This document shows positions 1-24,121 of a stretch of 26,870 nt of DNA, in pieces (within the stretch, counting starts at the first letter, position 1; each line of letters opens with the position of its first letter). The notes under the pieces are model-generated. The model had not been told where the DNA came from. It made no database searches and saw only the letters and a list, made by a program, of their open reading frames with translations. The stretch spans positions 1-26,870 of the forward strand of contig JBDRFG010000075.1 of assembly GCA_043819135.1 (NCBI GenBank). The letters are read 5' to 3'. The translations under genes were made by a program, and so were the position numbers. The stretch comes from Candidatus Eiseniibacteriota bacterium (GTDB lineage Bacteria; Joyebacterota; Joyebacteria; Joyebacterales; Joyebacteraceae).

Positions 1-1794
1 GGAACTCGTGCCCGTGATGCTGCCGCTCACCCGGAGCGCGACGGCCAGGAACGACCCCTCCTCCAGTCCGTCGGAGAGTGACGTGACCCTCCACGCGGAG
101 ACCACTACAGGCACCGACCCCATGGTCCGAAGAGATACGCTCGTGCGGCGCACGATGCCATCGGCGGTCGCCGGCGGGTCGCCTTCGCTGTCTGTGCGGG
201 AGCGCACTCTGGACTCCACGGCTATCCGCCAGTCTCTCTTGCTACGAAACTCGCCGCCGACGGTCACGGAGGACGAACCGTTCGGCAGCTCGGAGTAGTA
301 GGACCGCCAGGGCCTTCGTGCGATACGCGTCGCGGCCCAGATCTTCCAGTCGGCGCCCGAGCGGTACTCGGCGCCCACCCACCCGACGGCGCCGTTCGAT
401 CCGCCGGAGAAGCCCGGAACACCTCCCCCCAGGGGCGCCCAGTAGTCCCTGGACAGGTATCCCGCTCCGGCGTTCACGCGGGAACTGCCGCGACCCAGTC
501 GGGCGGCGGCGAGAGCGGCAACGCCACGCGCGGAGGTCGCCGCTACCTCGCACCCGGCCATGAGCTCGCCTCTCGATGTCCGAACGTCGAGCCCGCCCGC
601 CGTCAGGTCCTCACCGCGAAACCCAAAGCGCTGCCTCACCGGGTCCCCGGGCATGAGCCCCGGGGAGTAACCGAGACGGAGGACCGAGGCGGAAAGCTCG
701 AGTCCAGCCGGCTGCTCGAAGGTCACGCGGGCGCCGGCCAACGACTCGTCGAGGTAAGATGCGCCCTCCCTTTCCCCCTCCGTGCGATGATACCCGGTCG
801 TCCTGATCGAGGTGGCCAGTCCGTCCTCGCCGACCGCGGCGTCCAGCGCGCTTCTGGCGAGGATGGCCCGGACGCACGCCTTTCCTCTCGATGCGGTCAC
901 GAACACGCCCCGCCTTGCGGAACCCTCGCCGGCGCCGTCGTAGCGCCTGACGGAATCGCGCCGCCGCGGGTAGGCAGCTTCCGACGGGAACCCTCCGCTA
1001 CGGAGGAGCAACCCCTGTCCCCAGCTTCCAACGAAGTCGCCTACACCCACAACGAACGCCGGTCCGTCCTCCGCCGCGTCGGTGACGTCGCGCCAGACAA
1101 GTGAGACCACCGAGTGGTCCGCCAGCCCGGACTCCCCCGCATCCTTCTCGCACGCGACCGACAGGTCCAGCCTGTCCCCGTACGACACGCGCAGTCTGGC
1201 GAAGGTCCCCGTGCCGTTCACTACGCCCCGCGCGCCCCACGCGGCGTCCCAGCGCTCCTGCGCCGTCGCGCGCAGACGCAGCTCCCAGGCGACCTGCGAC
1301 GGGGCCGTCTGTGGCACCGGGGCCATCGTGTCCTCGACCTCCGGCGCTGCCGTCTCGGGAACCGGCGGATGCACGACATGACGCACGACAAGGTAGGGCC
1401 GCACGGCCGGCAGTGCCTCGCGGTTGATACATCCCCTCACAACGAGTTCGTCCAAGGACGCCACCGGTCCCAGGACGTCACGCCGCGCGACAATGCGAAC
1501 GGCGGCCGCCGGGTCGAGGAACGGCACGCGCAGAAGATCGGACAGCCCGGCGGCATTGACGTCGACGGGGTTCTCCCTGAAGGCCGCCGCCTCGCGCAGA
1601 AGCTCATCCAGCCCGTCGAGCGCAGCGCCCTCGTCTTCCAGCCCCGCCAGAACCTCGCGCATGATGGAGTCGTCAGGTGAGATGTCGTCCACGCCCGATG
1701 CGACGTCGTCGGCGACGCACCGCGCGGGGAGCACGGAGAGGGCAACCGCCAACAGAAGAGCCGTTGCGTCACGGCTCGATGGTGACCGACACAA
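1..1794 (-). CDS. ComEA-like helix-hairpin-helix domain protein with probable C-terminal outer-membrane beta-barrel (3' end beyond the window)
   Basis: Not in the ORF track; translated by hand. TTG start at 1794 with GGAGTGAG just upstream, and the frame stays open to position 1. Signal peptide MCRSPSSRDATALLLAVALSVLPARCVA. ComEA-type HhH segment ENPVDVNAAGLSDLLRVPFLDPAAAVRIVARRDVLGPVASLDEL. Then amphipathic beta-strands with EKDAGE, GDFVGSWGQGLLL and TGYHRTE motifs that I recall from Bacteroidota-type HhH outer-membrane proteins. Confidence 0.8.
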   Translation of the reverse strand, partial: MCRSPSSRDATALLLAVALSVLPARCVADDVASGVDDISPDDSIMREVLAGLEDEGAALDGLDELLREAAAFRENPVDVNAAGLSDLLRVPFLDPAAAVRIVARRDVLGPVASLDELVVRGCINREALPAVRPYLVVRHVVHPPVPETAAPEVEDTMAPVPQTAPSQVAWELRLRATAQERWDAAWGARGVVNGTGTFARLRVSYGDRLDLSVACEKDAGESGLADHSVVSLVWRDVTDAAEDGPAFVVGVGDFVGSWGQGLLLRSGGFPSEAAYPRRRDSVRRYDGAGEGSARRGVFVTASRGKACVRAILARSALDAAVGEDGLATSIRTTGYHRTEGEREGASYLDESLAGARVTFEQPAGLELSASVLRLGYSPGLMPGDPVRQRFGFRGEDLTAGGLDVRTSRGELMAGCEVAATSARGVAALAAARLGRGSSRVNAGAGYLSRDYWAPLGGGVPGFSGGSNGAVGWVGAEYRSGADWKIWAATRIARRPWRSYYSELPNGSSSVTVGGEFRSKRDWRIAVESRVRSRTDSEGDPPATADGIVRRTSVSLRTMGSVPVVVSAWRVTSLSDGLEEGSFLAVALRVSGSITGTSS

Positions 1795-2629: not shown

Positions 2630-2639
2630 CGCGGGGCTC

Positions 2640-4310
2640 CTATCTCACGATCCCGACGGCCGTCTTGGCCGTGACGAAGATGCCGGCACGGGCGTCGATC
2701 GCCTCGAGATAGGCGACGTAGAGCCCCGATGGAAGCGGGGCGCCGTCCGAGCCCGTTCCGTCCCACAGGAATTCGCTCACCGAGGGAAGCGCCGCGTGGT
2801 CTGCAAGCACCGCACGCACGCGTCCCTCCATATCGAACACGGTCAGCCTCGCCGTCGCCCGCGCCACGGGCAGTTCCACCCGGAACAGGGTACGGTCGGC
2901 GCTACCGTCGCCGTTCGGCGTGAAGGGATTCGGAGCGACCGTCAGTCGGCCGGCTGCCGGCGCGGCATCAAGATGGATGCTGTTGGTACGGCCGGGCGTG
3001 CTTCCCTCGGGAGCCACCGAGCCGCCCCAGTTCCCCGCGTTCTGCGAGGGCATGTCGGGCCGGACGCGCTCGAGCGACACGCCCCTCTCACCACCCCAGT
3101 CCCTCTCGTACGTGAAGTGGTCCATTGGAGTACCGAACTCGTCCAGCAACACCACCGTGTCGTCGGCCGAAAGAGCCTCCCAGTCGTCGGTCTCGACGAC
3201 CGGGCACGACGCCAGCCCCTCCATGAGTTCCGTGTCTCTCGCCACCAGCAGGAACGCGCCGGTGGCGAAGAGAGCCAGCGAATCGGAATCGATTCGACCG
3301 GCGCCCGCGTCATCTCCGAGCGCCCATCCACTCAACTCGACACCATCGCCAGGGATGTTGAGAAGCTCCACCCACTCGGTCCCGCCGTCATCGGGTGAGT
3401 GCATGACCTCGTTGACCGCGATGAGACCACCCACCCCGCCGACGGTGAAAGACGTGTGAGCGGTGTTGTTGGACGGCTCGCAGTCCGCTCCGAACGTGAG
3501 GGTCACGTTCCCGCGGTGATATCCGTCCGCCGGATCCATCCACCTAAGCGAGACCTCGACCGAGTCCCGCGGCGCCAGGTCGTCCGTAAGTACGGAAGAA
3601 CACGCGGGAGTCTCGGACCCGTACAGAAAAAGCTCAACGAGCAGCGACTGTCCGCCGGTAGGAAGCGCACCGACGTTCCTGACCACGCACGAGAGTTCCG
3701 CCGGCTTGCCGTGGTCGAAGATCGCCCGGCCGGGATGGTGAACCTCGAGGCAGAGGTCGTAGGAGAGCGCGTTGGCCGCCCCGGGCGTGGGCGGTCCCGC
3801 GACGAGATCGAGAGCGTTGTCCCCGTGATCGAAGCAATCGGGAGAGCGCGCGAGTGACAGGCCCGACTGCGCGTCGGCGGCAGGTCGGCCCTCATAGTAC
3901 TCCTGGAAGAGCGGCTCTCCCCACCCCACGACGTCGACCGGATCGACGCCATTGGTCAGCCGTACCCCGTCCGGGCCGTTCTGAAGATCCAGGGGCGTCG
4001 TGTAATCGGGTGGAGGCAGGACATCGACCTCCCCGATGACGAACATCTGTCCAGGCTCGACGTAGTCGAGATCGCCGCCGATCCACTCGACCGTCCAGTC
4101 ATCGGGGTTCGCGCCGTTCCCGGTCTCGAGCACCCATCCGGTCAGGGACACGCCGAGCCGCCCGCAGTTCAGGAGCTCCACGAACTCAAGGCCGGTGTCC
4201 GGACCTTCCGGGTCGTACAGCACCTCGTTGATAACCACCTGCGCAGTAGCGGGACCGGCGAGCAGCGCGCACGCCACGGCCCACAGGATGCGAAGACAGT
4301 GCTGTCGCAT
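2640..4310 (-). CDS. Secreted lamin-tail-domain (LTD) protein: LTD, CARDB, LTD, FlgD-Ig/T9SS-like C-terminal domain (~556 aa)
   Basis: ATG at 4310 with GAGGGAG RBS and signal peptide ending ATA-Q. Two LTD signatures (VVINEVLYDP..EFVELLN..LTGW and IAVNEVMHSP..EWVELLN..LSGW). CARDB-like VVRNVG...EPSNN segment. C-terminus PNPFTPNGDG...WDGTGSDG..PSGLY. Confidence 0.8.
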   Translation of the reverse strand: MRQHCLRILWAVACALLAGPATAQVVINEVLYDPEGPDTGLEFVELLNCGRLGVSLTGWVLETGNGANPDDWTVEWIGGDLDYVEPGQMFVIGEVDVLPPPDYTTPLDLQNGPDGVRLTNGVDPVDVVGWGEPLFQEYYEGRPAADAQSGLSLARSPDCFDHGDNALDLVAGPPTPGAANALSYDLCLEVHHPGRAIFDHGKPAELSCVVRNVGALPTGGQSLLVELFLYGSETPACSSVLTDDLAPRDSVEVSLRWMDPADGYHRGNVTLTFGADCEPSNNTAHTSFTVGGVGGLIAVNEVMHSPDDGGTEWVELLNIPGDGVELSGWALGDDAGAGRIDSDSLALFATGAFLLVARDTELMEGLASCPVVETDDWEALSADDTVVLLDEFGTPMDHFTYERDWGGERGVSLERVRPDMPSQNAGNWGGSVAPEGSTPGRTNSIHLDAAPAAGRLTVAPNPFTPNGDGSADRTLFRVELPVARATARLTVFDMEGRVRAVLADHAALPSVSEFLWDGTGSDGAPLPSGLYVAYLEAIDARAGIFVTAKTAVGIVR

Positions 4311-4375
4311 TTGGACAACTCCCTCAGGGGAGCCGGGGTGTCGTGAACATGCTGGCAAGGAATACTGCGATGTGG

Positions 4376-4452
4376 GGTAGTGCACTGGGGATTGCGAATT
4401 GGGGGTTGTGAACTGGGGATCGTGGATCGGGTTCTGAAGACTGGAGACTGAG
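4376..4452. repeat. Degenerate heptamer tandem array, 11 units, intergenic
   Basis: Plus strand reads ggtagtg cactggg gattgcg aattggg ggttgtg aactggg gatcgtg gatcggg ttctgaa gactgga gactgag, with a 14-bp higher-order period in the centre. Confidence 0.65.
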
Positions 4453-4466
4453 GGTCGCGCGCCGCG

Positions 4467-6632
4467 CTACGGCAGCCCCTGCTTCCTTCTCAGCGCCCAC
4501 TCGGCCGACATCAGTCCGACGAAACCAAGAAGCAGCCACGGCGAGTTCCACAACTCGAACTCGCTCTTCGCCGTGCGCTCGGCCCAGGCCAGAGGCACGT
4601 CATCGGGAAGGTCGTCCAGGGTCTCCGGCATGTAGTACCCTCCTCCGCTCTCCTCGGCTATCCTCCTGAGGATCGCGGACCTTCGTCGGGTCTCGGAGTC
4701 CTCGAGACTGAATCGCTCGACCACGAACTCGCCGGACGCCGTGCCCACTTCCTCGCCACCCACTGAGGCCGTAGCGCGCAGCACGTAGGGACCGGGCGGA
4801 AGGTGGCCGATCGAACCGCGGTAGTGGTCGCCCGCGGCCTCAAGGTCGACGGTGGCCACGGGGGCCGCGCCCTCGCCACTCGCGGCGGACACGCGCACAA
4901 CGGCATCGTGCGCGAGTCGATAGTCGGCCCTGTAGACCTGGGCGGAGAGACCGATGTCCTCGCCCGCCTGGTAGACGTCCTTGTCCGCGGCCACCACGAC
5001 GCGCTCGAGTTCCCCGCGCGCCGTCAGCCAGCGCGCCGTGTTCGTCACGAACCGACCGTAGACGTCGATGTCGTCGCCGGCCATCTTCCACCGCCACAGC
5101 CCGTCCGCCATGATGGCCATGACACTCCCCGCTCCCAGACGTCTGCCCGCGACGATCGCCGCGCCGTCGCCGCCCGGACCGTATCCTTCCACGAGCACGT
5201 CGGCGTCGGCGCGAACGGACCATGGCAATGACGTGAACGTGCGCACCGGAGGGAGTTCTCTCCACACCTCGACGTTGGCGAACCGATCCTCGGCCACCCG
5301 TGTGGCCGGCGCCGATTCTCCCGCATCGGTCAGACGGACGCGCACGTCCCGGAAACCGGAGAGCGGCTCGGCGACGAACGAGTACGGCAGGATGCCGAGG
5401 ACATCGTTCGGCGGACGCTCGCGGGGAATGCCCGCGATCAACAGGCCGCCTCCCCGGTCGTGCGCGAACGCCCGGAGCCACTCCAGAGACACAAGGGGTT
5501 CGGACCAGTCGGGCTCGAACAGGATCACGAGATCGTACTCGTAGAGCTCCGCCCTGGACTGGGGCGGCGTCCCGTCTGTGGCCGACACGGGCGAGCCCCG
5601 CTTGGCCACGACCGACTCAACCTCGACGTTGCGGTCGGCCTCGAGTTCGCGCGTGAGGAAGGCGAAGTCCCATCCGGGACGTCCGGCCAGAACCAGCACG
5701 CGGATCTTACCCTTCATCGCCGTCGTTACCACGATGCGCGAGTTGTTGGCGGTCGACAGCTCGCCGGCCGCGACCGGCACCGACACGGAGTAGCGATGCA
5801 CCCCGGGCGTCGAGGGCGTCACGCGAAACGTCACGCGCACCTCTTCGCCGCTTCCGGAGAGTTCGATCTGCCGTGAGTCCAGCGTCGCTCCGTTCTCCGA
5901 TAGCTCGACGACCGTCTCGGCGCCCTCGAACCCTGCGCTCGAGACCGTGACCTCGACGGGAACGCTCTCTCCCGTGTACGAGATGCGGTTGGTCACGACG
6001 TCTTCTATCGCGATGTCCGTCGCCGCCTGTGAACTGCCCACCCCAAGCACGAACACCGGGACGCCCAGCGAGACGGCGGCGACGTACGGACCCGCCCCGC
6101 GGTTGTCCGCGCCGTCAGTGGCAACGACGACGGCCCCCAGATTCCTGCCGGAGAGCACGTCGTCCAGAGCCTCGAAGGCCTGTGCAAGATCGGTGGCGCC
6201 GCCGTCGAACGTAGGCGCGTCCACGAGGACCCCCGCATCGGTTGTGAGCTCTCGCGACGCCCCGGAGAACGCGAACGCCACGAGGTCCGCGTCACGGGCC
6301 ACGCGCGGCAGAACAACTTCGTTCAGGAGGGACACGGCCTCATCGCCGCGCCGCTCGCCCCCGGTCCCGTCCCGCACCGACATGCTTCTGGACGCATCCA
6401 GAAGAAGCGCGACGACGGGCCGCTCCGTGATCGTTCGGGAGAGGGCGAGAACGGGCTCGACCAGGGCGACGAACAGCAGCACAAGACCTGCCGATCGCAG
6501 GACAACGAGAAGGGGCCGCAGGCGACCGGCCGAGGTTGGCACCCTGCGGTAGAACCAGATGACGGAGATAACAGTCAGGGCGCCCAGCAACAGGAGCACC
6601 CACGCGTGTGTCTGATTGAACAGTAGTGTCAT
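4467..6632 (-). CDS. Membrane-anchored VWA domain protein with CARDB/Ig and glutamine-amidotransferase-like domains (BatA-like, ~721 aa)
   Basis: ATG at 6632 overlaps the debranching-enzyme stop (ATGA). Two N-terminal TM helices. Complete MIDAS motif (LDASRSM, GGATD, VATDG). STANN CARDB-like end. GATase-like domain (YDLVIL...GGGLL...LWRWKM). C-terminal TM ending EWALRRKQGLP. Confidence 0.8.
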   Translation of the reverse strand: MTLLFNQTHAWVLLLLGALTVISVIWFYRRVPTSAGRLRPLLVVLRSAGLVLLFVALVEPVLALSRTITERPVVALLLDASRSMSVRDGTGGERRGDEAVSLLNEVVLPRVARDADLVAFAFSGASRELTTDAGVLVDAPTFDGGATDLAQAFEALDDVLSGRNLGAVVVATDGADNRGAGPYVAAVSLGVPVFVLGVGSSQAATDIAIEDVVTNRISYTGESVPVEVTVSSAGFEGAETVVELSENGATLDSRQIELSGSGEEVRVTFRVTPSTPGVHRYSVSVPVAAGELSTANNSRIVVTTAMKGKIRVLVLAGRPGWDFAFLTRELEADRNVEVESVVAKRGSPVSATDGTPPQSRAELYEYDLVILFEPDWSEPLVSLEWLRAFAHDRGGGLLIAGIPRERPPNDVLGILPYSFVAEPLSGFRDVRVRLTDAGESAPATRVAEDRFANVEVWRELPPVRTFTSLPWSVRADADVLVEGYGPGGDGAAIVAGRRLGAGSVMAIMADGLWRWKMAGDDIDVYGRFVTNTARWLTARGELERVVVAADKDVYQAGEDIGLSAQVYRADYRLAHDAVVRVSAASGEGAAPVATVDLEAAGDHYRGSIGHLPPGPYVLRATASVGGEEVGTASGEFVVERFSLEDSETRRRSAILRRIAEESGGGYYMPETLDDLPDDVPLAWAERTAKSEFELWNSPWLLLGFVGLMSAEWALRRKQGLP

Positions 6633-8998
6633 GGCAGCTCGCCCGCGCACGCGGAGTCTTCGTCAGCGCCGGCCAGCCGGGTTGTCCACGCCCCGCCACT
6701 TCTCTCGGAGGTGAACCTCACGGAGCCGCCGGGCTTGAGGACCACCTCGAGCGTCTCTCCCTCCTCCTGGACGTCGGCGTCGGGGCGCGCGCGGGGTGTG
6801 AATCGAACGGTCAGGGGTGGAGCATCCGCGTCGGCCACGACGCTCGTGCAGGCGCGTCCGCCTTCGGCGTCCACGCGGTGCAGCACGAAGAGAGAACCCT
6901 CGCCCACCCGGACGGGCGCGGCCATCCAGCTACAGGACGGCGGTAGCGCGGGCCTGACGTCCACCGTCCCATCGAGAACGTTGGGCCGGACCCCGAGGTA
7001 GTCCTGGTAGAAGTTTCTCAGGAACTCGGACAAACTCCATGCTTGCGACACGGCACCGGCTACGTTCTCCCCGTGCTCGGGAGGAACGCCGTTTCTGAGC
7101 TCGGGAAGGGTGCCGGCCGCGCCCTCGTCGAACATCATGTTCGCGAGCACGGATGTCTGCTCCCAGGCCGCGGCAACCAGGCCGTGCTTCACCAGCGCGG
7201 AGACCACGGGGCCGGTCAGCCACACCCACACGTCTCCGTTGTGGTAGGCCTCATCGAAGTGGTACCTCTCCAGATCGAGGTGGCAGGGATGGAAGCCCGG
7301 GTCCTCCGTGTAGAGAGTCGTGACGCCGTGCCTCAGCACGCAGCTCTCCCGGACAAGCTCCAGCATCGCCCGTTCCGCCTCACGAGGGAGCAGGTCGTCC
7401 CAGGGCACTGTCGCCGCGAACACCTGATTGGGCCGGATCTGACGGTCGGGCACGCCGTCCGGGTCGAGGTGATCGAAGAGACCGTGAGTCGAAGGATCCG
7501 GGAACTCGCGCAGAAACGCACCTCCGACCAGTTCCGCGGCCTCACGCCATCTCGAGGCCTGCTCCTCCCTGCCGAGCGCGTCCGCGATGGCCGCCCCCGA
7601 GATGAGGGCAGTGTACCACAAGACCTGTACCTCGACTGCCCGGTTGCCGCGGGGCGAGAACGGGCTCGTCTCTCCACCCGCGTCCATCCATGTCTCGGCC
7701 TGACCGTGGAGCAGGAAGCCCTCGGCGTCCGTCCTGCGCGCGAGCGCTCCGTCGATCGCCCGTTCGACGACCGGCATGAAGCGCTCCGCGAATTCCAGGT
7801 CGCCCGTGTATCTCAGATACTCGTACGCCTCGCGGACGAACCACCAGGTTCCGTCGGCCGTGTTGTAGTAGACCTCGCCCGGCATTGCGAGGTTGGGTAT
7901 CCGTCCGAACAGGAGGTTGTCCTCGTCCGTCTCCTGGAGTACGGCGAACGACTCCAGGATCTCCCTGGCGGTGTCGAATTCGCCACGAACCAGGCACGCC
8001 CCCGGGAGAGCGATGAACGTGTCCCGCCCCCAGTAGTTCGGGAACCAGTGCAGCCCCGCGAAGATGCCACGGCCGAGCTGGTTCATGATGAGAGCGTCCA
8101 CGGACGCGGCGGCCCATTGGAGGGCCAAGTGGTAGTCGTTGTCGTGCGTGGCGATGCCGGCGCCATCCAGGAGGTCCGCGGTCCTTCTCATCTTGTCGTC
8201 GTAGAGCGCAAACTCGTCGTGTAGACCTTTGCGCGCAAGCTCCGCGGCCCCGTCCAGCGTGTCTCCGACCGCGGCGCAGAACGTGACGCTCCCCGCGAAG
8301 CCCTCGTCACTCTCGAACGCGAACTCCAGGCGCCCCGGCGAGTAGGGAACAGCCGACGCCATGGCCCTTCTGGCGGCGTCCTTGGTGTACGTGGTCCTTC
8401 TGTACGCCTCGTGCGGAACGAACTCCGCGGGTCGGTCGCACGCGACGGCCACCCACACGGGATAATCCTGTTGATCGGTACGCTCGAGATGGTCGGTCCG
8501 TCTCAAGGCGAGCACGCGCCTGTCCTCGTCCCAACGCGTCTCGTACTCGGGCTGCCCCTCTTCCCAGATGCTCCTGATGTCGAACCTGGGCTCGAAGGAC
8601 GCCCGCCCCGAGTGATTGGAGCTGTAGGAGACCAGGAGAATGTTCTCACGGTCGGCCAGGAAGACGGTCTCGGTCGTCTGCTCGATGACGTACTCGCGCG
8701 TGACGCTCTGGGGGAGGACACAGGCGCTCCTCAGACCCCACGAGGAGAGCGGCACGTCGCCGAGCATCAGGTCCCAGCCCTCGAGGAACTTGTGGAGCTC
8801 AACGATCAGGCCCGCGTAGCTCCTGGTGTTCGTCGTGCCCGTCTCACCGGCGAAGTAGGCCTTCTCTTTGTTGGTCAGGATGTACTCGCGCGTCTCCCGG
8901 GAGCCGACGACTATCTGCAGCCCCTGGCGACAGCCCTTCAGAGGTAGCTTCTGCGAGCCCGATTTCTCTTTGGTGTTTCTGATCGCGTCGTCTCCCAT
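6629..8998 (-). CDS. Amylo-alpha-1,6-glucosidase / glycogen debranching enzyme (GDE_N + GDE_C, GH133-like), cytoplasmic
   Basis: GDE_C motifs HWFPNYWGRDTFIALPG, YNTADGTWWF, TWMDA, RAVEVQVLWY, RPNQ, YHNGDVWVWL, LPEL and QAWS. N-terminal REYILTN motif. No signal peptide. Confidence 0.9.
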   Translation of the reverse strand: MGDDAIRNTKEKSGSQKLPLKGCRQGLQIVVGSRETREYILTNKEKAYFAGETGTTNTRSYAGLIVELHKFLEGWDLMLGDVPLSSWGLRSACVLPQSVTREYVIEQTTETVFLADRENILLVSYSSNHSGRASFEPRFDIRSIWEEGQPEYETRWDEDRRVLALRRTDHLERTDQQDYPVWVAVACDRPAEFVPHEAYRRTTYTKDAARRAMASAVPYSPGRLEFAFESDEGFAGSVTFCAAVGDTLDGAAELARKGLHDEFALYDDKMRRTADLLDGAGIATHDNDYHLALQWAAASVDALIMNQLGRGIFAGLHWFPNYWGRDTFIALPGACLVRGEFDTAREILESFAVLQETDEDNLLFGRIPNLAMPGEVYYNTADGTWWFVREAYEYLRYTGDLEFAERFMPVVERAIDGALARRTDAEGFLLHGQAETWMDAGGETSPFSPRGNRAVEVQVLWYTALISGAAIADALGREEQASRWREAAELVGGAFLREFPDPSTHGLFDHLDPDGVPDRQIRPNQVFAATVPWDDLLPREAERAMLELVRESCVLRHGVTTLYTEDPGFHPCHLDLERYHFDEAYHNGDVWVWLTGPVVSALVKHGLVAAAWEQTSVLANMMFDEGAAGTLPELRNGVPPEHGENVAGAVSQAWSLSEFLRNFYQDYLGVRPNVLDGTVDVRPALPPSCSWMAAPVRVGEGSLFVLHRVDAEGGRACTSVVADADAPPLTVRFTPRARPDADVQEEGETLEVVLKPGGSVRFTSERSGGAWTTRLAGADEDSACAGELP

Positions 8999-9065
8999 GC
9001 AACTTCCCTGCCATGCTCACCGGCCACTGGCGCGTGGGGTCCGCGCCGCTACGGCCGGTCCGAAG

Positions 9066-9082
9066 TGTCAAGCGCGTTGACA
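9066..9082. promoter_or_regulatory. Perfect inverted repeat TGTCAA-N5-TTGACA upstream of the debranching enzyme (candidate operator)
   Basis: tgtcaa gcgcg ttgaca lies 68 bp upstream of the ATG at 8998. No properly spaced -10 hexamer was found on either strand. Confidence 0.35.
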
Positions 9083-9115
9083 GTGCTCCCGAGCCAGCTC
9101 CCCCAGAGGCACCGC

Positions 9116-9142
9116 TCGCCCGGCCGTTCAACCGCCGGGCGA
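9116..9142 (-). terminator. GC-rich hairpin after the DOMON gene (possible terminator or mRNA-stabilising stem)
   Basis: tcgcccggc-N9-gccgggcga, a perfect 9-bp stem about 34 bp past the stop at 9176. It has no U-tract, so termination is uncertain. Confidence 0.35.
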
Positions 9143-9175
9143 CCGATGGATGTCGCAACGCGACTAACGACCGCT

Positions 9176-9952: not shown

Positions 9953-10078
9953 GTCTGCCCCCTTGCATGCGAAGCACCGCAGCGCTCCGCGAGTATCTTC
10001 CAGGTCCAGTCCACCAGGCGCGCCCCAGCGCGGTCTCCCGCCGCGCACGCCGAAGCCTCGAAACCTCTCTGACACAAT

Positions 10079-12186: not shown

Positions 12187-12188
12187 GT

Positions 12189-14040: not shown

Positions 14041-14080
14041 GATGCCCAACTCCTCCATCCGCGGTTCCGTGCTTCCGTCG

Positions 14081-16236: not shown

Positions 16237-17811
16237 CTAGTAGTAGATCCTCACGAATGCCTTGAACACCTGCTCGGTTATCGAGTTTGCGCCGTGCGAC
16301 ACGAAGTCGCCATCGTTGACAAGGTCGTTGCTCTGATCCGGGTTGCCGAACTCGACGAAAAACTCCGCGCTGTTCCAACCCAGATACCGGATCTGCGCGA
16401 ACGCCGTCTGCCGGGACTCGGTGGCCTCGTCGACGTTCATCACGCGCGCGTAGAACTTCCAGAGATCGCTCAGGTTGACGTTCGCCTCGAAGCCGTATGC
16501 GGTCACCTCGTAGTCGGAGTCGATGTCCCTGATGCGAAACTGCGTCCGCAGCTTGACCAGTTTGTTCTCGCCCGTCAGCTCGAAGAAGAGGTTGGGCCAG
16601 ATGCCGTTGTTGTCCTCGTAGACCTTGTACTCGGTCTTGCCTGTGAACCCGTTCAGAAACTCGATGTACGCCTCGCTCCCCCACTCGTCGATGTTGCCCA
16701 CCGACTGCGCGTGGCTCGTCACCAGCGGGTCCTCAGGCTCGGCGTGCCTGATCCAGCCCTTGAGGTTGATGGCCTTCGTGGGAACGCGGTAATGCCCCTC
16801 AGCGTAGTACTGCGTGTAGCCGTTGAGATTCTGCCTGTCGCCGTGCGCGAGACCCTGGTTGTAGAAGTCCTTGCCGTAGGTCTCCCACGCGCCAAGGAAC
16901 TGCATCGGGCCCACGCGGATGTCCCTGAGCTCCGTCTTGAATCCGTTGACACCGGGGTCTTCATCGTCACTCAGATGTCCGGATGTGGTTCGCCCGTACT
17001 CGGATGCCCACGTGACGCGTCCGAACTGCCCGATCACCGGCGCGATATCTCCCAGAGCAAGTTCTGCGTCGAACGCCACCGTCTCGTCGAAGTTACCGCT
17101 CCTGCCTACGTAGGCCGTCTCGTTGAAGTCCTTCCGTGCGTAGGTGCTGCCCAATTGAACGCGATCGGAGAGGACCTTCTTGTTCATTCTGAAACCCCGA
17201 TAGTCGTCCGTGCTGCTTGAGATCGTGTCTCCCACGGTGGAACCGGGGTAGTAACCCTGCTCGGCCGCGGATAGTTCGGACCACCCGGAAGAGACGTAGT
17301 CGCTTCTCTCGCTCATGAAGGCCGCGCCCGAAAACCCGTACGTGTCCCAGAAGTCCAGCCTGATTCCCTGCGCCCGCGGCCCGTAGTCGTCGTGCTTCAC
17401 CTGTCCCGAGTCCACGATCTGGAGGAGCGGTTCGTTGAGCCAGAACCTGTCCTGTCCCGCGAACAGGTGCGTCTCGAACTTGCTCGCGTGAAACCGAAGG
17501 TGCGCCTCGCGGAAGAAGAACTTCGTATCCTTCAGATCGTCCATCCACCTGTTCGACTCGGCCGAGACCTTCAGGAAGCTGTCGATGTCCTGCCACGGAC
17601 TCGACTTGAGCCGGAACTCGGCGTAGAGTTGGGGATTGTCGAGCCCCCAGCTGGGGTCTCCGCCGCCGCTGCTCCGAAGCTCGCTCATGAGCGAGGAGTA
17701 GCCCTCGAGGGTCGTTACCCCGGCGGCGGGCACGACCCACGCCGCGAGCGTCAGACCCGCGGTGAGGAGAGCGAAGATGTGGCGGCTTCTCTTTCTCTTA
17801 GTTCGAACCAA
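16237..17811 (-). CDS. Putative outer-membrane beta-barrel, distant paralogue of the downstream barrel (524 aa)
   Basis: TTG start with TAAGGAG RBS, Sec signal peptide, amphipathic beta-strands throughout and a C-terminal aromatic beta-signal (FKAFVRIYY). Confidence 0.7.
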   Translation of the reverse strand: MVRTKRKRSRHIFALLTAGLTLAAWVVPAAGVTTLEGYSSLMSELRSSGGGDPSWGLDNPQLYAEFRLKSSPWQDIDSFLKVSAESNRWMDDLKDTKFFFREAHLRFHASKFETHLFAGQDRFWLNEPLLQIVDSGQVKHDDYGPRAQGIRLDFWDTYGFSGAAFMSERSDYVSSGWSELSAAEQGYYPGSTVGDTISSSTDDYRGFRMNKKVLSDRVQLGSTYARKDFNETAYVGRSGNFDETVAFDAELALGDIAPVIGQFGRVTWASEYGRTTSGHLSDDEDPGVNGFKTELRDIRVGPMQFLGAWETYGKDFYNQGLAHGDRQNLNGYTQYYAEGHYRVPTKAINLKGWIRHAEPEDPLVTSHAQSVGNIDEWGSEAYIEFLNGFTGKTEYKVYEDNNGIWPNLFFELTGENKLVKLRTQFRIRDIDSDYEVTAYGFEANVNLSDLWKFYARVMNVDEATESRQTAFAQIRYLGWNSAEFFVEFGNPDQSNDLVNDGDFVSHGANSITEQVFKAFVRIYY

Positions 17812-17889: not shown

Positions 17890-18771
17890 CTACCACAGGA
17901 AGATCGCCGACAGCCTGTAGAGGCTCCCTATCCTCCGCTCAGAGAGCAGAGCGACGTCTATCTGAACGTGCCTGGTCCTCATGCCCAACCCCGCGGTGAT
18001 CCTGTCGCGGTTCATTCCCGCTCTCAATGCAAACGCTTCGTAGAACCAGACCTCGGTTCCGAGGTTGATGATGTAGCGGTCTTCGTAGTACTCGGGCACC
18101 TCCCTGGGAGCGCGCCACTCGGCCGTCATCAGCATGACGTCGCGGAAGAGATACGAGCCGCCGAAGCGAAACTCGCTGACCACCGGGTCGAGGTCTTCGG
18201 AGTCGGTCGAAGAGATCAGCTGGAGCTTAGGTTCTCCGAGGTTCCTCAAGGTCCCGCCAACGCTCCACTTCCCGCGCTTGTAGAGAGCGCCCAGGTCCGC
18301 CGAGTACGCGTCGTCGCCGCCTGACTCGAAGGACGGGTCGTTGTAATACTCGTATCCGGGCGCCTCGACGGAGAAACGCTTGAGCGTCACACCCGCGGTC
18401 AGGCCGTCGATCGGCGTCTCGGTGCCGTAACCCGCCAGGAGCGTGTCCTCGTTGTAGAGGTCCTCCGCCCCCGTTCTCATCCACCCCACGCCGTACCCCA
18501 TGTTTCCCGTTCCGTACGATACCAGAGCCGCATCTTCGGACAGGCCGTCAACGCTGTAGACGCTTGTGCGCATGCCGAAGACCTGGATCCCCTGAAGCCC
18601 TGCCAGGCCGGCAGGATTCCAGTGCAGCGCCGTCACGTCGTCGGCGACGGCCACGAATGCGCCGCCCATGCCCATCGCCCTCGCCCCAAGCTCGGTCTCG
18701 AGGAAGTTCGCCTGAACCGCCCCGACCAGGAGGAGCAGAGCAACGGCCGTGCTTACAGTGAGCTTCAGCAT
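17890..18771 (-). CDS. PorV/PorQ family (FadL-like) outer-membrane barrel (~293 aa)
   Basis: ATG at 18771 with AAGGA RBS, signal peptide ending VQA-N. Family signature GARAMGMGGAFVAVADDVTALHWNPAGLA, plus ADLGALY, LRNLG and ALRAG. Terminal Trp. Confidence 0.85.
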   Translation of the reverse strand: MLKLTVSTAVALLLLVGAVQANFLETELGARAMGMGGAFVAVADDVTALHWNPAGLAGLQGIQVFGMRTSVYSVDGLSEDAALVSYGTGNMGYGVGWMRTGAEDLYNEDTLLAGYGTETPIDGLTAGVTLKRFSVEAPGYEYYNDPSFESGGDDAYSADLGALYKRGKWSVGGTLRNLGEPKLQLISSTDSEDLDPVVSEFRFGGSYLFRDVMLMTAEWRAPREVPEYYEDRYIINLGTEVWFYEAFALRAGMNRDRITAGLGMRTRHVQIDVALLSERRIGSLYRLSAIFLW

Positions 18772-18784: not shown

Positions 18785-21700
18785 CTACTTGATGATGACA
18801 ACAGGTCTGTTCACTCGCTCGAATGTCGGTTCGGTCTTGAACTTCGCTTCAAGGCGCATCACGTAGATCCCGTAGGGAACCGCGTTGCCCTCCCGGTCGG
18901 TCCCGTCCCAGGACACGGTGTTCGGGGTCCGCCCCGTGTAGTTGGTCGCCCCCTGGAAGACCAGCCGTCTGGCGAGTCTTCCTTCCAGGTCGTAGAACTC
19001 GACGTTGACGTAGTCGGCCTCGCGGCCGAGGTAGAAGCTGACGATGGTCTCGTCGTAGATGCCGTCACCGTTCGGCGAGAACGGGTTGGGCTGCGCCAGC
19101 ACGCCGGACAGACCGTCGGACGAGCCCACGTCCAGCACCTCCCAGTAGAACAGACCGTAAGTGCCGGCATTGTCGATCTCGGCAGTTACGGTGTTGCCGC
19201 CGGGGTTGCTGGCCCCTCCCCTCAGGATCCAGCGCTCGGTCTCCGGCACCCACTCGAAGAGACCGAAGCTGGACTCGTCGAGACCTCCGACGTCGTACTG
19301 CGGGTAGTGCAACGTCAGCCCCGCATGACCGCCGATCTCGAGGGGCGTCCCGCTGGCGTACTCGGCCCCGATGGTCCTGGCGACTCCCACGAACTCCATG
19401 TCATCACGGATGTTGGAGACGTCGACGAAGTTCGACGGTATGGGAGTGACGGTCACCTCGATGGTGTCACCCTCCGCCGGCTCTATCTCCACGTCCTCGA
19501 CCGACAGCACCGTGCCGTCCTGGAACACCAGGAACTGCTCCGCGTTCGGCATGAGCGAATCGGGTCCTGATATCGTCTGGCTCAAGGACCACGGCTCGGG
19601 GATGCCGAACGTGAGAGGAGAAGTCGTTATGCTGTTCTGCGCCTCCGTCAGATCCGACGCCTGGATCCATGCCTCGAACACGCGGCCGTCGCCGATCTTG
19701 TTCAGCTCTACTACGTTGGTGGCGGCCACGATGTCGGAGCGGGATATGTCGGCCGCCCAGATGTTCCCGATGAGGTTGACCATGTCGGCCGTGTAGCTGC
19801 CCGCCGGCAACCACACGGGACGCCAATGGAAGGTCGCGGCGCGCACACCGGTCACGTCGCTCATCGTCGTCCAGAGAACCGACGGGGCGCCGTCGAGAGC
19901 CTCCCACGGAATGAACTCGAGGTCCGGGTCGCCCGGGAAGCCGTGGATGACCGGCGGCGACGTGTCCACGGCGAAGCTCGCCTCGAGCACACACGCAACC
20001 TTGTTGCTGTTGAACCTCTGTTCCGCGTCACCGGTCGTGTAGTCGAGCATCTCCTCCTGCGGTCGACCCGACTCGTGTCCCAGGCCGGGCGAGGTAGCGA
20101 CGTCCATGATGTTGGCGTCCCTGTCCCGGCCACCCTCGCTGTCCCTGCCGCCGCCGATCTGCCACTCGCTCGTCGTGCCGTTGACCCAGCGAATACCACC
20201 CAGGTTCTGATCGTTGGTGTCGCCGTCGTGCGAACCCAGCGTGACGATGATGTCCCACGAGAGGATGGCGTCGTTGTCCGTTGTGTCATTCGGGTCCAGC
20301 CCCAGCAGTGCGCGATTGACGCTGACGTCGATGTAGTCCTCTGCGTAGTCGTCGCACATCGAGATGTCGCTGTCGTTCTTGTAGATCCCCCAACTCGCGG
20401 AGGAGTTCGAGCCGTTCGAGACGACGAACCACTTCCCCCAGCCCTCCGCTGAAATGCCGTAGTCCCACGCGTCCACGTTGGCGATGTCGACGTAGCGGTT
20501 CGGGAACCCGCTCGTCGCGCCCTCTCCCTCGTTGGCGTCGATGTAGATATCGAGCTTCTGCAGGTTGAGGTCGGTCCTGTTGGGATTGGCGCAGGTCTGC
20601 TCGCTCGGCTGGGGAGCCCCCCAGTCGGCGGCGGACGGGTCCTGATGGTAGACCAGGTCCTTGATGTGAGTGCGGAAGACAATCTTGTTCCCGTCCGCGA
20701 ATATCTCGACCCCCGTGATATCGAAAGACCCCGGCAGGAAGACCAGGTTCGTCGGGTACCGGTAGTACAGACCCTCTATGGGACTTCCGCCCGAGGTGGT
20801 CTGGTTGGGACCGTGGTCGTCGAACTCCGGGTCCTCGAACGACCTGATGGCCGTCGCCGGGTTGTCGGCGGAGACCGTGATCTCGATGGTCGAGGTTGCC
20901 ACGTTCTGTGCGTCGCGCGCGGTCACTACGACCGTATGCTCGCCGTCAGATGCCGCGGACGGCATCTCCTCCTGCGCCGTGTAGACGCCGTCGCCAGCCG
21001 CTCTGTCGGCCGCCGCCCCGTCATCCGACATCCGCAGGAAGATGCTGCCGCCGATGCTCGAGAGATCGATGAAGACGTCACCGATGCCCCCGCCCGCGTC
21101 GGCGACACTGACGCTGTATGTGACGAGCTCTCCGGGCGCCGCCTCGGGAGGACTTGCAGTCCCTGACGTGAGGATCGGCGCGAACCCCTCTTCACGAACG
21201 ACGTAGGTGGCGTAGTTCGAGAGCGTCACGGGCGTCGTAGCGGTCTCCCACCAGTCCCCCTCGTCGGGCAGCATGTCGTGCGTACTGTCGTTGGGAACGG
21301 AGTCCAGAGCCGTGCGCTTCTCGCCGTCCGTTTCCTGCATCAGGTAGACCTGAACGCGAATGGTGTCACCTATCGCGGTCTCGATGACCGAGAGCGGGAT
21401 CCGGAGTTCGACGTCCTCCGCGCCCTTGGTCGTGAATCCCTGTGCGACCACATTCACGCCGTCGGCGTAGCCTATGCGCCACGCCTCCTCGACGAAGTCG
21501 TAGTGCTCCCACCCGACTCCGGCTCCCAGATTCCGCCTGAGGTCACCGTAGTCGTTGGCGGTGTACTTGTAGGTCAGGGCGTAGTCCGGAAGGAGCGCGT
21601 GACCGAAGTTAATCGGGAACTCGAAAGGATCTGCTGCTCCACCTGCGGCGTCGTCGTGCGTCTCGAGGAGGACGCCGAGGTGCACGCCGTCCCAGTTCGA

Positions 21701-24121
21701 GGAGAAGGCCAGACCGACGACCAGGTTCTCGCTGTCGTTGGCGACCTTGAGAATAGTCAGATCCACGCCCGCGTCGCTGTTGTGCGCGGGGTCGGTCTCC
21801 GGCGCCGTCTCGTCCACGGCCGCTATCGTCGCATCGATGGGGATGTAGAGCGTCTCCACCGGGAGGCTCCCGGCGGTGCCCGTAATCTGGATGGTGCCGT
21901 AGTTCGCGCCGGCCGTAAGCACCCCGGTGGCCCCACCCGTCGCTCCGGTCACTATCGGGGTGTCGAGAGACTCGATCAGCTCCACAGGTGAAGCCGCGAG
22001 AGCGATGGAGAGCCCGGAGAGCGCCACGGAGTTGCCCCACGCGTCCACCACGCGCCCGGTCAGCGTCGACGACTGGTGTGGGCTCAAGGCCCTCGGGTTG
22101 GCCGACATCTCTACGAATGCGGCGTCGCCCGCCGTAAGGAGTATCGCAAGCGTATCGACCGCCAGGTTGGGATACGCGGACGACGGGGCGATCGTCGCCG
22201 AAACGTAGGTAGTCCCTGCGGCGACACCGGAGAAGTCCACTTCGAACCTGCCGTTCGACTCGGTCTCAGGCGACGAGATGCTGAAGCTGCCGCCGACGCC
22301 TCCGGCAGTCATGCCGGCAACGATGCCCGGTATCTGCGAGCTGTTGCCGCTCGCGTCCACCAGCTGACCCGTGATGCGAGCGACTCCATCCCCCGCGGCG
22401 ATGGTCGTGGCGTCGGTTGAGAGCGCGAGACGCACGGGAGCCGGCGGGTCGATACCGACGTCGAGGACACCCTGGAGGTTGACCTTCTGGGCGAGCACCC
22501 GCACGACCTCCACCGCATCGCCGCTCACGAGGAACAGCGCCCTGCCGTCGTCGAACATCGCGTTGGTCACGGTCGAGTCAACCAGAGGCGTGCCGGTCGG
22601 GTCCGCGAAGATGATGTTGCCGGTTGGAGGGTAGGCGGGATCGAGCTTGGACGCGGACAGCAGAACGTCCGTCTGAGCGGTCTCGTCCCAGTAGGCGATC
22701 CTATTGCCGGCGTCGCGCGGCTCGAGCCACGCGCGAGCGTAGTAGTAGATGGAATCCGCGGGCAGGCTGACTGTAGTGCCCGTGCCGTAGATGCTGTTCC
22801 CGAGCGAGTCGGAGAACCCGTACTTGGTCGCGACTACGGCGGGAAGTTCGAGGAGCCCGACGTCGGTCGTATCGCCGCCTGCGATCGTCGCCATCGTGTC
22901 CGCCTCGACGTAGCCCTTTCCTTCGGCCAGAACGAACCAGTCGCCGTCGGCGACCAGACCGATTGAGAACGGGCCGGAACCTCCCGCTACCACGACCTCG
23001 CCGTCTCCAACCAGCGCACCGGTCGCCTGGTCGTAGACGCCGATAGTCACATCGACGGCAGGGCCGCCCGTAAGAGCGACCTCACCATCGACGCGTCCCG
23101 TGACCCTGGTCAGCGCGAAGTCGACTCCCGGCGTGTCGCTGGTATCTGCGACCACGACGCCCTCCGTCGTCACGGGCAGGTAGGAGAAGGCCTCCGCCGT
23201 TACGTCGTACACCCCGTCACCGAGCCGCCTGATCAGATACTCGCCGCCCCCGGCCGCCGTCTTGCCGAACCACACTTCCTCGCCGCCCTGATAGGCAGTT
23301 ACCGTGACCACGGTATCGTGGTCGGTCGTGTCGCCCAGCGCGACGGCCCCGGAGATGCTGCCGCCGGGGGGATAGTTGAAGTCGGGAACGCCGTCTCCAT
23401 TCTGGTCGATCGGTATCTCGAAGAAGAGGTCCAGGTCGGTGTAGGCTCCGTCGGGAGTGGCGGGATCGGACTCCATCCCCGATGAAGACGTAGGCATGGC
23501 ATCGAAGGCGCCGGTGTTATCGCCGCCGACGACAGCCGCGATGAACCGGAGCACGGTACCCTCGGGAACCACGCCTGCGCCGAGTCCGTAGAGCCCGTTC
23601 CATGGGATGACGCCCTCGTAGTGCTTAGCGCCGGGGTTGATCGCGGCGTAGGCGCCGTCGATGGCGGGCATGACCACCAGCTCGTCGCTGTGCCTGATCC
23701 CCTCGCTACCTCCCTGCAGACTCCACACGCCGAATATCGCGTCGACCCCCATGGTGCTTAAGGTCACGCGCCTGGGGTAGAATGCGGCGCTCGTGAAATC
23801 GGTGGCACCCGTGATCCCGTCCTGCGCGTCCTTGTCGATGTAGAGGGTGTAGCCGTTGTTGAGCGGACCGTTGACGGTCCTGACGCCGAAATAAAGGTTC
23901 GTCTCGTCCCAGGTCACCCAGAGGTCCCTGAGGTCTCCCTGGGTCGGGTAGTGGCGGCAGTCGTTGCTGGGGTCGTTTCCCGGCCACTCATCGCTCTCCC
24001 AGTCACCCTCCAGTGTGGTCACGCGCCCGTCGATCGTGGGCGTGTTGTAGCTGTTAGACAGAGCCGATGTCGCCAGCAGAAGCATCAGAACAACGACGGC
24101 AGCAACCAGGTACCTTCGCAT
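18785..24121 (-). CDS. Large secreted multidomain alpha-glucan-binding protein: DOMON/CBM9-like x3, carboxypeptidase-regulatory-like x2, Big_1-like Ig, choice-of-anchor-X-like, FlgD-Ig/T9SS-like C-terminal domain (~1778 aa)
   Basis: ATG at 24121 with AAGGA RBS, signal peptide MRRYLVAAVVVLMLLLATSALS. TPTIDG..DW..DLWVTWDETNLYFG. GSISGAV..GVYDVTAEA. VDASGN and VDAWGN Ig repeats. MSDDGAAADRAAGDGVYT. Glucodextran_C-like FEDPEFDDHG..YRYPT..GSFDI..LDIYID. C-terminus PNPFSPNGDG..WDGTD..PYGIY. Confidence 0.75.
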   Translation of the reverse strand: MRRYLVAAVVVLMLLLATSALSNSYNTPTIDGRVTTLEGDWESDEWPGNDPSNDCRHYPTQGDLRDLWVTWDETNLYFGVRTVNGPLNNGYTLYIDKDAQDGITGATDFTSAAFYPRRVTLSTMGVDAIFGVWSLQGGSEGIRHSDELVVMPAIDGAYAAINPGAKHYEGVIPWNGLYGLGAGVVPEGTVLRFIAAVVGGDNTGAFDAMPTSSSGMESDPATPDGAYTDLDLFFEIPIDQNGDGVPDFNYPPGGSISGAVALGDTTDHDTVVTVTAYQGGEEVWFGKTAAGGGEYLIRRLGDGVYDVTAEAFSYLPVTTEGVVVADTSDTPGVDFALTRVTGRVDGEVALTGGPAVDVTIGVYDQATGALVGDGEVVVAGGSGPFSIGLVADGDWFVLAEGKGYVEADTMATIAGGDTTDVGLLELPAVVATKYGFSDSLGNSIYGTGTTVSLPADSIYYYARAWLEPRDAGNRIAYWDETAQTDVLLSASKLDPAYPPTGNIIFADPTGTPLVDSTVTNAMFDDGRALFLVSGDAVEVVRVLAQKVNLQGVLDVGIDPPAPVRLALSTDATTIAAGDGVARITGQLVDASGNSSQIPGIVAGMTAGGVGGSFSISSPETESNGRFEVDFSGVAAGTTYVSATIAPSSAYPNLAVDTLAILLTAGDAAFVEMSANPRALSPHQSSTLTGRVVDAWGNSVALSGLSIALAASPVELIESLDTPIVTGATGGATGVLTAGANYGTIQITGTAGSLPVETLYIPIDATIAAVDETAPETDPAHNSDAGVDLTILKVANDSENLVVGLAFSSNWDGVHLGVLLETHDDAAGGAADPFEFPINFGHALLPDYALTYKYTANDYGDLRRNLGAGVGWEHYDFVEEAWRIGYADGVNVVAQGFTTKGAEDVELRIPLSVIETAIGDTIRVQVYLMQETDGEKRTALDSVPNDSTHDMLPDEGDWWETATTPVTLSNYATYVVREEGFAPILTSGTASPPEAAPGELVTYSVSVADAGGGIGDVFIDLSSIGGSIFLRMSDDGAAADRAAGDGVYTAQEEMPSAASDGEHTVVVTARDAQNVATSTIEITVSADNPATAIRSFEDPEFDDHGPNQTTSGGSPIEGLYYRYPTNLVFLPGSFDITGVEIFADGNKIVFRTHIKDLVYHQDPSAADWGAPQPSEQTCANPNRTDLNLQKLDIYIDANEGEGATSGFPNRYVDIANVDAWDYGISAEGWGKWFVVSNGSNSSASWGIYKNDSDISMCDDYAEDYIDVSVNRALLGLDPNDTTDNDAILSWDIIVTLGSHDGDTNDQNLGGIRWVNGTTSEWQIGGGRDSEGGRDRDANIMDVATSPGLGHESGRPQEEMLDYTTGDAEQRFNSNKVACVLEASFAVDTSPPVIHGFPGDPDLEFIPWEALDGAPSVLWTTMSDVTGVRAATFHWRPVWLPAGSYTADMVNLIGNIWAADISRSDIVAATNVVELNKIGDGRVFEAWIQASDLTEAQNSITTSPLTFGIPEPWSLSQTISGPDSLMPNAEQFLVFQDGTVLSVEDVEIEPAEGDTIEVTVTPIPSNFVDVSNIRDDMEFVGVARTIGAEYASGTPLEIGGHAGLTLHYPQYDVGGLDESSFGLFEWVPETERWILRGGASNPGGNTVTAEIDNAGTYGLFYWEVLDVGSSDGLSGVLAQPNPFSPNGDGIYDETIVSFYLGREADYVNVEFYDLEGRLARRLVFQGATNYTGRTPNTVSWDGTDREGNAVPYGIYVMRLEAKFKTEPTFERVNRPVVIIK

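Follow-up and report, generated by a model that had tools for sequence, protein, structure and literature searches.

Does one outer-membrane design occur twice on a single contig, once for glucan and once for DNA? The question is raised by a 26,870-nucleotide stretch from a Candidatus Eiseniibacteriota bacterium (GenBank contig JBDRFG010000075.1, here C75; the whole stretch is called the window), one contig of a 2.69-Mb genome that is 92% complete. An earlier note, made from the sequence alone, had described two modules in it, each with a cargo carrying a type IX secretion system (T9SS) C-terminal domain (CTD), a small carrier barrel and a large barrel with an N-terminal ligand-binding domain, and had proposed a modular polymer-import chassis that needs neither TonB nor a pilus. 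We find that the large barrels form a new, uncharacterised superfamily of plug-less barrels with alternative periplasmic domains, which is paired with T9SS carriers and includes a widespread helix-hairpin-helix (HhH) member. Module A is a four-part outer-membrane unit inside an alpha-glucan import and breakdown locus, because the order cargo, carrier, paralogue, CBM48 barrel is conserved and glucan genes lie around it. We consider the chances somewhat better than even that the modules are import loci, similar to polysaccharide utilisation loci (PULs), of a bacterium of the Fibrobacterota-Chlorobiota-Bacteroidota (FCB) group with few TonB-dependent transporters, built on a plug-less channel family and a periplasmic sink.

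All six open reading frames on which the earlier note relied lie on the minus strand where it had placed them. The parts of the two modules are, in minus-strand order:

18785 to 24121, minus strand: module A cargo, 1778 amino acids, with signal peptide, Ig and carboxypeptidase-regulatory repeats, a Glucodextran_C (DOMON-like) domain and a T9SS-type CTD
17890 to 18771, minus strand: module A PorV-like carrier barrel, 293 amino acids (PorV_fam, 77 of 90 bits)
16237 to 17811, minus strand: paralogue barrel, 524 amino acids, without N-terminal domain and ending in RIYY (hhalign to the CBM48 and HhH barrels)
14081 to 16159, minus strand: CBM48 domain plus plug-less barrel, 692 amino acids, about 22 strands, long conserved third loop (domain match, predicted fold)
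2640 to 4310, minus strand: module B cargo, 556 amino acids, with an LTD domain, an Ig-like linker, a second LTD domain and a T9SS-type CTD
1769 to 2629, minus strand: module B PorV-like carrier barrel, 286 amino acids, divergent (profile comparison)
1 to 1794, minus strand: acidic helices at the N-terminus, ComEA-fold HhH domain whose hairpins are degenerate, and a plug-less barrel (about 24 strands); truncated at the contig end

Both large proteins are predicted as barrels, as the earlier note had supposed, and as plug-less outer-membrane ones, with a pLDDT of about 85. The AlphaFold2 model of the CBM48 protein, built from a 96-row alignment, has a pLDDT of 85.5 and a pTM of 0.77, and its barrel begins at about residue 134. 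The HhH gene leaves the contig at base 1 and resumes in contig C49 or C22, giving a whole protein of about 675 amino acids; a whole, 90%-identical homologue of 675 amino acids was modelled with a pLDDT of 85.8 and a pTM of 0.82. Counted as long strands in the DSSP secondary-structure lists of these models, the barrels have 22 (CBM48 protein) and 24 (HhH homologue) strands. The closest structure to the CBM48 barrel is FyuA (Z 15.9, root-mean-square deviation (rmsd) 4.6, 382 residues aligned), with the FimD usher tying at Z 15.0 and MtrB and maltoporin close, and the closest to the HhH homologue is FimD (Z 14.1, rmsd 4.9, 358 aligned). Among the structural matches of either large barrel, no solved relative stood out from generic barrels.

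No match to the Plug domain (PF07715) was found on the window barrels, which have CBM48 or HhH at the N-terminus or, in the paralogue, no N-terminal domain, the first strand coming directly after the signal peptide. Because there is no plug, these barrels are not members of the SusCD/TonB-dependent transporter family; SusC and SusD also had no match among the 16 window proteins, which hold no tandem susC-susD pair. The usual topology of outer-membrane proteins places an N-terminal domain on the periplasmic side, so that the CBM48 and HhH domains would be periplasmic. Strand alternation gives an estimated lumen face that is basic for the HhH family (R+K 27.5 versus D+E 18.0), and for the CBM48 barrel an acidic one (21.1 versus 32.2); the predicted fold is a wide barrel with a conserved luminal Arg.

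By profile comparison with hhalign the paralogue matches the CBM48 barrel at 97.2% (E 4e-11), which bears out the kinship claimed earlier, although BLAST is weak (E 0.002). It also matches the HhH barrel (83.6%, E 8e-6), and through the paralogue the CBM48 and HhH barrels are remotely related. Language-model features make the paralogue DUF6029-like. The resemblance to DUF6029 barrels is one of features and structure, with no Pfam match to PF19494. As to whether other ligand domains swap in, searching 225 loci and the genome with barrel-only profiles returned CBM48 (one or three copies), HhH (one or two copies) or no domain, and no third ligand domain, in a weak test since the loci overlap and had been found by the same families.

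In the relatives module A is stable. A barrel-length match to the CBM48 protein is present in 23 of the 24 family genomes, and of 11 family loci, 9 show the complete series cargo, carrier, paralogue, CBM48 barrel, the remaining two stopping within the carrier. We also surveyed 48 metagenome loci found with the paralogue, which include near-duplicates. Of the 43 that extend far enough, 37 have the carrier immediately upstream of the paralogue; the cargo is upstream of the carrier in 27 of 27 and the CBM48 barrel downstream of the paralogue in 26 of 26, an order conserved down to about 30% identity. In four of the six exceptions to carrier-paralogue adjacency the carrier is one gene further upstream. 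The most distant loci encode a barrel with three CBM48 domains.

There are further observations on these relatives. One distant variant (L197 to L203) combines the three-CBM48 barrel with a single-CBM48 protein and more CTD and BNR-repeat proteins, and in L201 a nucleoside phosphorylase gene sits between carrier and paralogue. The ESM Atlas contains a separate cluster of 639-amino-acid CBM48-plus-barrel proteins, commonest in Fidelibacterota, with a TM score of 0.69 to the window barrel. A Sir2 deacylase and a 4Fe-4S membrane protein (window 24285-26122) precede module A in many relatives, distant metagenome loci included.

From 24121 to base 1 every gene is on the minus strand, and neighbouring genes overlap slightly or are separated by short gaps. 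Between the CBM48 barrel and the module B cargo the order is:

13252 to 14058, minus strand: lipoprotein with two CBM48 domains, lipobox LSSC by eye, 3' of the CBM48 barrel in relatives too
12189 to 13184, minus strand: sugar ABC permease, MalF/UgpA-like (domain and family matches)
11359 to 12330, minus strand: sugar ABC permease, MalG-like, whose real start is probably near 12180 (domain and family matches)
10079 to 11314, minus strand: sugar-binding lipoprotein, SBP_bac_1 (domain and family matches)
9176 to 10075, minus strand: Glucodextran_C (DOMON-like) protein, exported; judged by eye it has a cleavable signal peptide and is no lipoprotein
8999 to 9175, no strand: gap where most relatives have an exported GH57 protein with two CBM48 domains, absent here and in genome G006
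6629 to 8998, minus strand: amylo-alpha-1,6-glucosidase, GDE_C, an archaeal-type debranching enzyme (domain and family matches)
4467 to 6650, minus strand: membrane protein with vWA/CARDB, immediately preceding the LTD cargo wherever a family locus is long enough

The genes for alpha-glucan import and breakdown among these surround module A and bear out its glucan reading in the earlier note; alpha-glucan is very probably the substrate. The CBM48 domain (PF02922) of the barrel scores 45 bits against a cut-off of 22.4 (E 1e-11), and its tryptophans W55, W70 and W92 are kept in all 96 homologues. The domain match and the conserved tryptophans mark it as a glycogen-binding module, with binding as a prediction. 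The cargo matches Glucodextran_C at E 1e-27, a family that also goes by the label DOMON; no catalytic domain was found in this cargo or in that of module B, and a sequence comparison of the module A cargo with solved PDB structures gave no match. The lipoprotein with two CBM48 domains is a candidate periplasmic glucan sink. Another GH57 protein of this genome is encoded on contig C88.

The small barrels and the cargo tails connect both modules to the T9SS. PorV is described as a carrier at the SprA translocon (PMC10994853). SprA is encoded on contig C72 of this genome (500 bits, cut-off 200), together with 15 PorV-family matches, of which eight are strong, and 75 FlgD_ig matches; the genome also encodes a C25 peptidase resembling PorU, and CTD proteins number about 70. 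The GldM model had no match in the genome, and none in the controls either. The module A carrier reaches 77 of the 90 bits of PorV_fam. The module B carrier has no direct family match in the domain-library search, and the alignment of its family matches the module A carrier at 98.7% and PorV (6h3i) at E 7e-7. Judged by these scores and profiles, both small barrels are homologous and PorV-like, the latter as the earlier note had said of the one in module A. They are remote members, below curated cut-offs and nearer to PorV_fam than to PorP_SprF, and the gene of each lies directly downstream of a cargo gene.

At both cargo tails FlgD_ig and CHU_C stay below the Pfam cut-offs in hmmscan (CHU_C 18 and 22 of 27 bits). 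With TIGR04131 the LTD cargo scores 17 of 35 bits and the big cargo has no match, so both fall short of the type B CTD cut-off. Because the CTDs are sub-threshold and the carrier is PorV-type, we do not classify cargo and carrier, on these matches, as a textbook type B pair. For the genome-wide comparison we used 70 CTD tails, which are 70 of the 75 FlgD_ig matches after dropping one duplicate domain and the four weakest. The motif PNPF[TS]PNGDG is present in both window tails and in no other of the 70; the module A cargo ends in PVVIIK. The claim that both modules have the same gene order and CTD type holds for the shared tails and not for the order, which is not identical, module A being four-part with its paralogue. 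A PorV-like gene lies directly downstream of only 7 of the 70 CTD genes, which together with the orders kept in relatives makes the layout more than a chance one, and an eighth pair was found on contig C23; four of these eight pairs adjoin a large barrel, namely modules A and B, a module C on contig C44 and the C23 pair.

Module C (C44 13428-27806) comprises ABC permeases with a solute-binding protein, a pair of CTD cargos, of which one matches LTD and OB-fold domains, a carrier, an 827-amino-acid HhH barrel, a FadL-like barrel and a 5'-nucleotidase. Its HhH barrel belongs to the same family as that of the window (E 8e-52), and its carrier is 32% identical to the module A carrier. The series cargo, carrier, barrel of module C is kept in all five family loci and in all three genomes of other families. 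On C23 (28531-35833) the genes of a plugged TonB-dependent transporter and a CTD protein and two PorV-like genes stand in a row, in that order. The cargo-carrier-transporter logic is therefore general and not tied to TonB independence, since a plugged TonB-dependent transporter fills the barrel slot on C23. The C23 row lies about 5 kb from exbB/exbD/tonB-like genes.

Module B is kept as LTD cargo, carrier and HhH barrel in 17 of the 18 family loci fetched (from 18 of the 24 family genomes), and the eighteenth is cut short. At E <=0.001 the HhH-barrel family numbers 2032 representatives, some of which may match in the HhH alone. We surveyed 80 named loci, mostly of Bacteroidota, and 121 genomes sampled from the Bacteroidota phylum. 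A PorV-like gene of about 270 amino acids lies upstream of the HhH barrel in 64 of the 80 loci, and the barrel is found in 96 of the 121 genomes, almost always as a single match. Among 20 hand-picked genomes spanning the score range, 14 have the carrier upstream of the barrel. Five of the six others share flanking genes (L206 to L210) and look like one lineage; in four of these five, which have no SprA match, the carrier has no clear match anywhere in the genome. In G129 and G057 the carrier is kept and unlinked to the barrel. The HhH barrel can exist without a T9SS, because it is kept in the five genomes without SprA match, and the carrier mostly tracks the T9SS, a pattern that amounts to about one independent loss. 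As for triplet conservation, both modules are kept in relatives, and outside the family module B is found as a pair of carrier and HhH barrel, without cargo.

A link between a carrier and HhH domains is given by genome G028 (L045:8018-9298), where a PorV-like carrier has two canonical ComEA domains at its C-terminus and adjoins the HhH barrel. Such carrier-ComEA fusions form 29 clusters, all 29 with the G-h-G motif and several labelled Ca. Edwardsbacteria. A carrier-barrel fusion in L154 was rejected as an artefact of a gap of Ns.

How could such a unit work? The CTD cargo, borne by a PorV-like carrier of its own, would exit by the SprA translocon and remain tethered at the surface as a non-catalytic binder, a tethering suggested by work on PorP/SprF. 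The direct passing of substrate from cargo to channel, proposed in the earlier note, is putative, as is a complex of the parts. The plug-less barrel of 22 to 24 strands, narrowed by conserved inward loops, would be the channel, judging from the predicted models. Its N-terminal domain would catch the substrate at the periplasmic face. Free periplasmic binders and enzymes would then act as the sink that gives directional flow, namely the lipoprotein with two CBM48 domains, GH57 and the MalE-like binding protein in the glucan version and ComEA, the 5'-nucleotidase and the solute-binding protein in the HhH version, and an ABC transporter would finish uptake. In the HhH family the barrel would be the core, usually partnered by the carrier in genomes with a T9SS, and the cargo would be lineage-specific. 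The earlier note had seen a ratchet in the N-terminal domain; we reason that a single tethered domain could catch the polymer but would act as a ratchet only by passing it on to free binders in the periplasm.

The sink step is suggested by the gene content and by analogy with LamB and MalE, where flow through the channel is driven by the periplasmic binder. The LamB maltoporin and CymA are TonB-free sugar channels, and LamB works with the periplasmic binder MalE and a Mal-type ABC transporter. Module A resembles these systems in its proposed TonB-free sugar channel, periplasmic binder and Mal-type ABC transporter. It differs from LamB and CymA in the larger barrel, the fused CBM48, the second, paralogous barrel and the T9SS-displayed binder; the likeness drawn here is one of layout.

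Several results weigh against this account of import. Most Bacteroidota loci lack a cargo beside the carrier-barrel pair, CTD genes making up 3 of the 25 large same-strand neighbours scanned, all of them downstream, and so do G026 and G028. The HhH barrel persists in the five genomes without SprA match, while the other 19 of the 24 genomes tested have SprA. The direct profile comparison of CBM48 barrel and HhH barrel is weak (21%, E 0.001), yet colinear from the first strand. The module B barrels of the family have lost the terminal aromatic residue that is kept in Bacteroidota, and the window HhH barrel is only 35-46% identical across genera, versus 68-74% for the C44 barrel. On the import reading, module B of the window is a fast-evolving copy and module C on C44 the better-kept, DNA-scavenging one; the window HhH-barrel copy may be relaxed or re-purposed. 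The genome also has four TonB_C and three Plug matches, two secretins, six T2SSE-family matches, ComEC and a free ComEA with canonical hairpins. Independence of TonB and of a pilus is thus suggested by the missing plug and by nothing else, because the genome carries TonB, secretins, T2SSE-family ATPases, ComEC and ComEA.

For the ligand of the HhH barrels the picture is mixed as well. The domain has the tandem-HhH fold of ComEA (HHH_3 at E 3e-8 on 1-1794; residues 74-138 of the homologue match ComEA 8dss with Z 8.9, rmsd 1.8 and 65 residues aligned). The canonical HhH motif is a G-h-G hairpin, and this is lacking in the HhH domains of both the window and C44 and present in 4 of 122 family N-termini. 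The HhH domains have a median net charge of -1, which is near neutral, the C44 barrel is acidic (K+R 60, D+E 90) and so are the cargos (K+R 29 and D+E 83 in that of module B). In favour of DNA, the lumen face estimated for the HhH family is basic, and two distant module C cargos have weak, below cut-off matches to DUF5689 (E 3e-6 and 1e-4), the family of the proposed DNA binder DdbD (PMC12478041). We think that the HhH-barrel family probably handles nucleic acid or DNA, though with much room for doubt, because of the carrier-ComEA fusions and the nucleic-acid-type neighbours of module C and not because of the window HhH itself. The claim that the HhH points to DNA thus keeps the ComEA-like fold, the fusions and module C on its side, and loses the hairpins of the window protein. 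The acidic helices before the HhH have a median net charge of -9; that they are a DNA-mimicking gate is a guess.

A bolder version of the import account is tentative and, in our view, well short of probable. It would make the barrels an FCB-wide, plug-less channel superfamily with swappable periplasmic domains that docks a PorV-like carrier, whose T9SS binder is held as a lid over the pore in a TonB-free equivalent of SusCD; the HhH version would give FCB bacteria that lack pili an outer-membrane gate for DNA, unrecognised so far, that serves feeding or natural competence. The chassis proposed in the earlier note holds in part: the layout recurs on C44 and C23, the plug-less barrels are remotely related and module A is a glucan unit, and the module B triplet does not extend beyond the family.

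Of the rival explanations, the one that survives best, unlikely as we hold it, is that each locus simply combines a porin-like barrel and a T9SS cargo with its cognate carrier, co-transcribed because all serve one substrate, so that there would be neither a machine of three parts nor any hand-over. That a cargo gene lies beside its cognate carrier is already a known T9SS rule, as described for F. johnsoniae, where the carrier genes lie directly downstream of type B cargos (PMC12618676). The adjacency is general in this genome too (the 7 of 70 CTD genes plus C23, several without a large barrel), outside the family module B has no cargo, and in G057 and G129 the carrier gene lies apart from that of the barrel. 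What this explanation does not account for is the adjacency of carrier and HhH barrel without a cargo gene in the 64 of 80 and 14 of 20 distant loci, and the carrier-ComEA fusion, which connects the carrier with the ligand of the barrel.

It is improbable that the large barrel is an anchor or scaffold, a third subunit fixing the carrier-cargo pair in the manner of PorE, with HhH or CBM48 binding a periplasmic partner and not the transported polymer. The PG1035-PorP-PorE trimer of cargo, carrier and PorE is a described precedent (PMC9143113), the HhH hairpins are degenerate, and a near-universal, single-copy HhH barrel (96 of 121 genomes) fits a housekeeping role. The barrel is, however, retained by genomes that have no SprA match and have mostly lost the carrier, modules A and C have importers and catabolic enzymes as neighbours, and a wide barrel with a conserved luminal Arg is predicted.

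Energised barrels, assisted by TonB/ExbBD or a pilus and with the N-terminal domain or the acidic helices as an atypical plug, are very improbable. The roughly 22 strands, the TonB-dependent transporters at the top of the structural matches, a precomputed PF00593 match on two homologues and an HhH model that from about residue 40 aligns with the plug starts of such transporters in several rows would fit, as would TonB/ExbBD in the genome and the transporter in the equivalent slot on C23. Against this there is no Plug match, the first strand of the paralogue comes right after the signal peptide, no TonB gene is present in any locus examined, and Z scores of 14-16 do not favour TonB-dependent transporters over ushers, porins or MtrB. 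Export channels for glucan or another polymer are hardly credible, for although the fold matches include barrels of the AlgE, Wzi and PgaA type, the surrounding genes encode an ABC importer with solute-binding protein, GH57 and a debranching enzyme, with no synthase or flippase in the locus.

The import loci preferred here can also be set beside systems already described. Like type B T9SS pairs and PG1035-PorP-PorE, they have a small FadL-family barrel encoded right after the cargo gene, a type-B-like PNGDG tail and a third linked gene. Unlike type B systems, their carriers are nearer to PorV_fam than to PorP_SprF and their CTDs lie under the TIGR04131 cut-off; and the third gene encodes a large outer-membrane barrel, whereas PorE is described as a peptidoglycan-binding lipoprotein and the known cargos as adhesins. 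With the Sus systems and PULs of Bacteroidota (SusCD, SusEF; PMC12478041) they share a surface binder, an outer-membrane transporter, a periplasmic hydrolase and inner-membrane uptake, combined in one locus for one polymer. As far as those systems are described there, module A differs in having neither plug nor SusD, a T9SS cargo as binder instead of a lipoprotein, a periplasmic CBM48 borne by the barrel, and an ABC importer.

Pilus-free DNA capture in Bacteroidota is described as using a TonB-dependent transporter (PMC12478041, PMC8459023). The HhH loci are similar to ddbABCDEF and to Riemerella RA0C_RS04915/04920 of these papers in the proposed pilus-free DNA capture at the outer membrane and in the weak DUF5689 matches of the module C cargos; they differ in that Ddb is described with a TonB-dependent transporter and lipoproteins (PMC12478041). 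The HhH proteins RA0C_RS02645 of Riemerella (PMC8459023) and PGN_0421 of P. gingivalis (PMC11532111) are, by their descriptions, periplasmic ComEA types. A search of titles and the beginnings of abstracts, mostly of open-access papers, found neither plug-less barrels of this kind nor this layout.

The outer-membrane step of DNA uptake in P. gingivalis and pilus-less Bacteroidota has been called unclear (PMC11532111), and the HhH barrel with its PorV-like neighbour, found in a cultured strain (L122) too, is a candidate for this passage. The results also suggest that T9SS carriers might serve nutrient uptake by keeping binders beside channels. The genome has three Plug matches versus 75 FlgD_ig matches. 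Polymer-eating FCB lineages with very few TonB-dependent transporters may use another channel family, which PUL predictors based on susC/susD would miss.

A few observations remain on the module ends. The N-terminal domain of the big cargo has no Pfam match, and in L035:15102-15809 and L036:6192-6884 a gene downstream of module B is about 50% identical to it. A promoter and terminator scan of window 1-14500 stayed at chance level. At window 1-130 the contig forks into the ends of C49 or C22, which are 91% identical to each other (an assembly bubble), suggesting two strains in the assembly. By eye, the continuations carry genes for a glutamate-synthase-like small subunit and a dihydropyrimidine-dehydrogenase-like protein.

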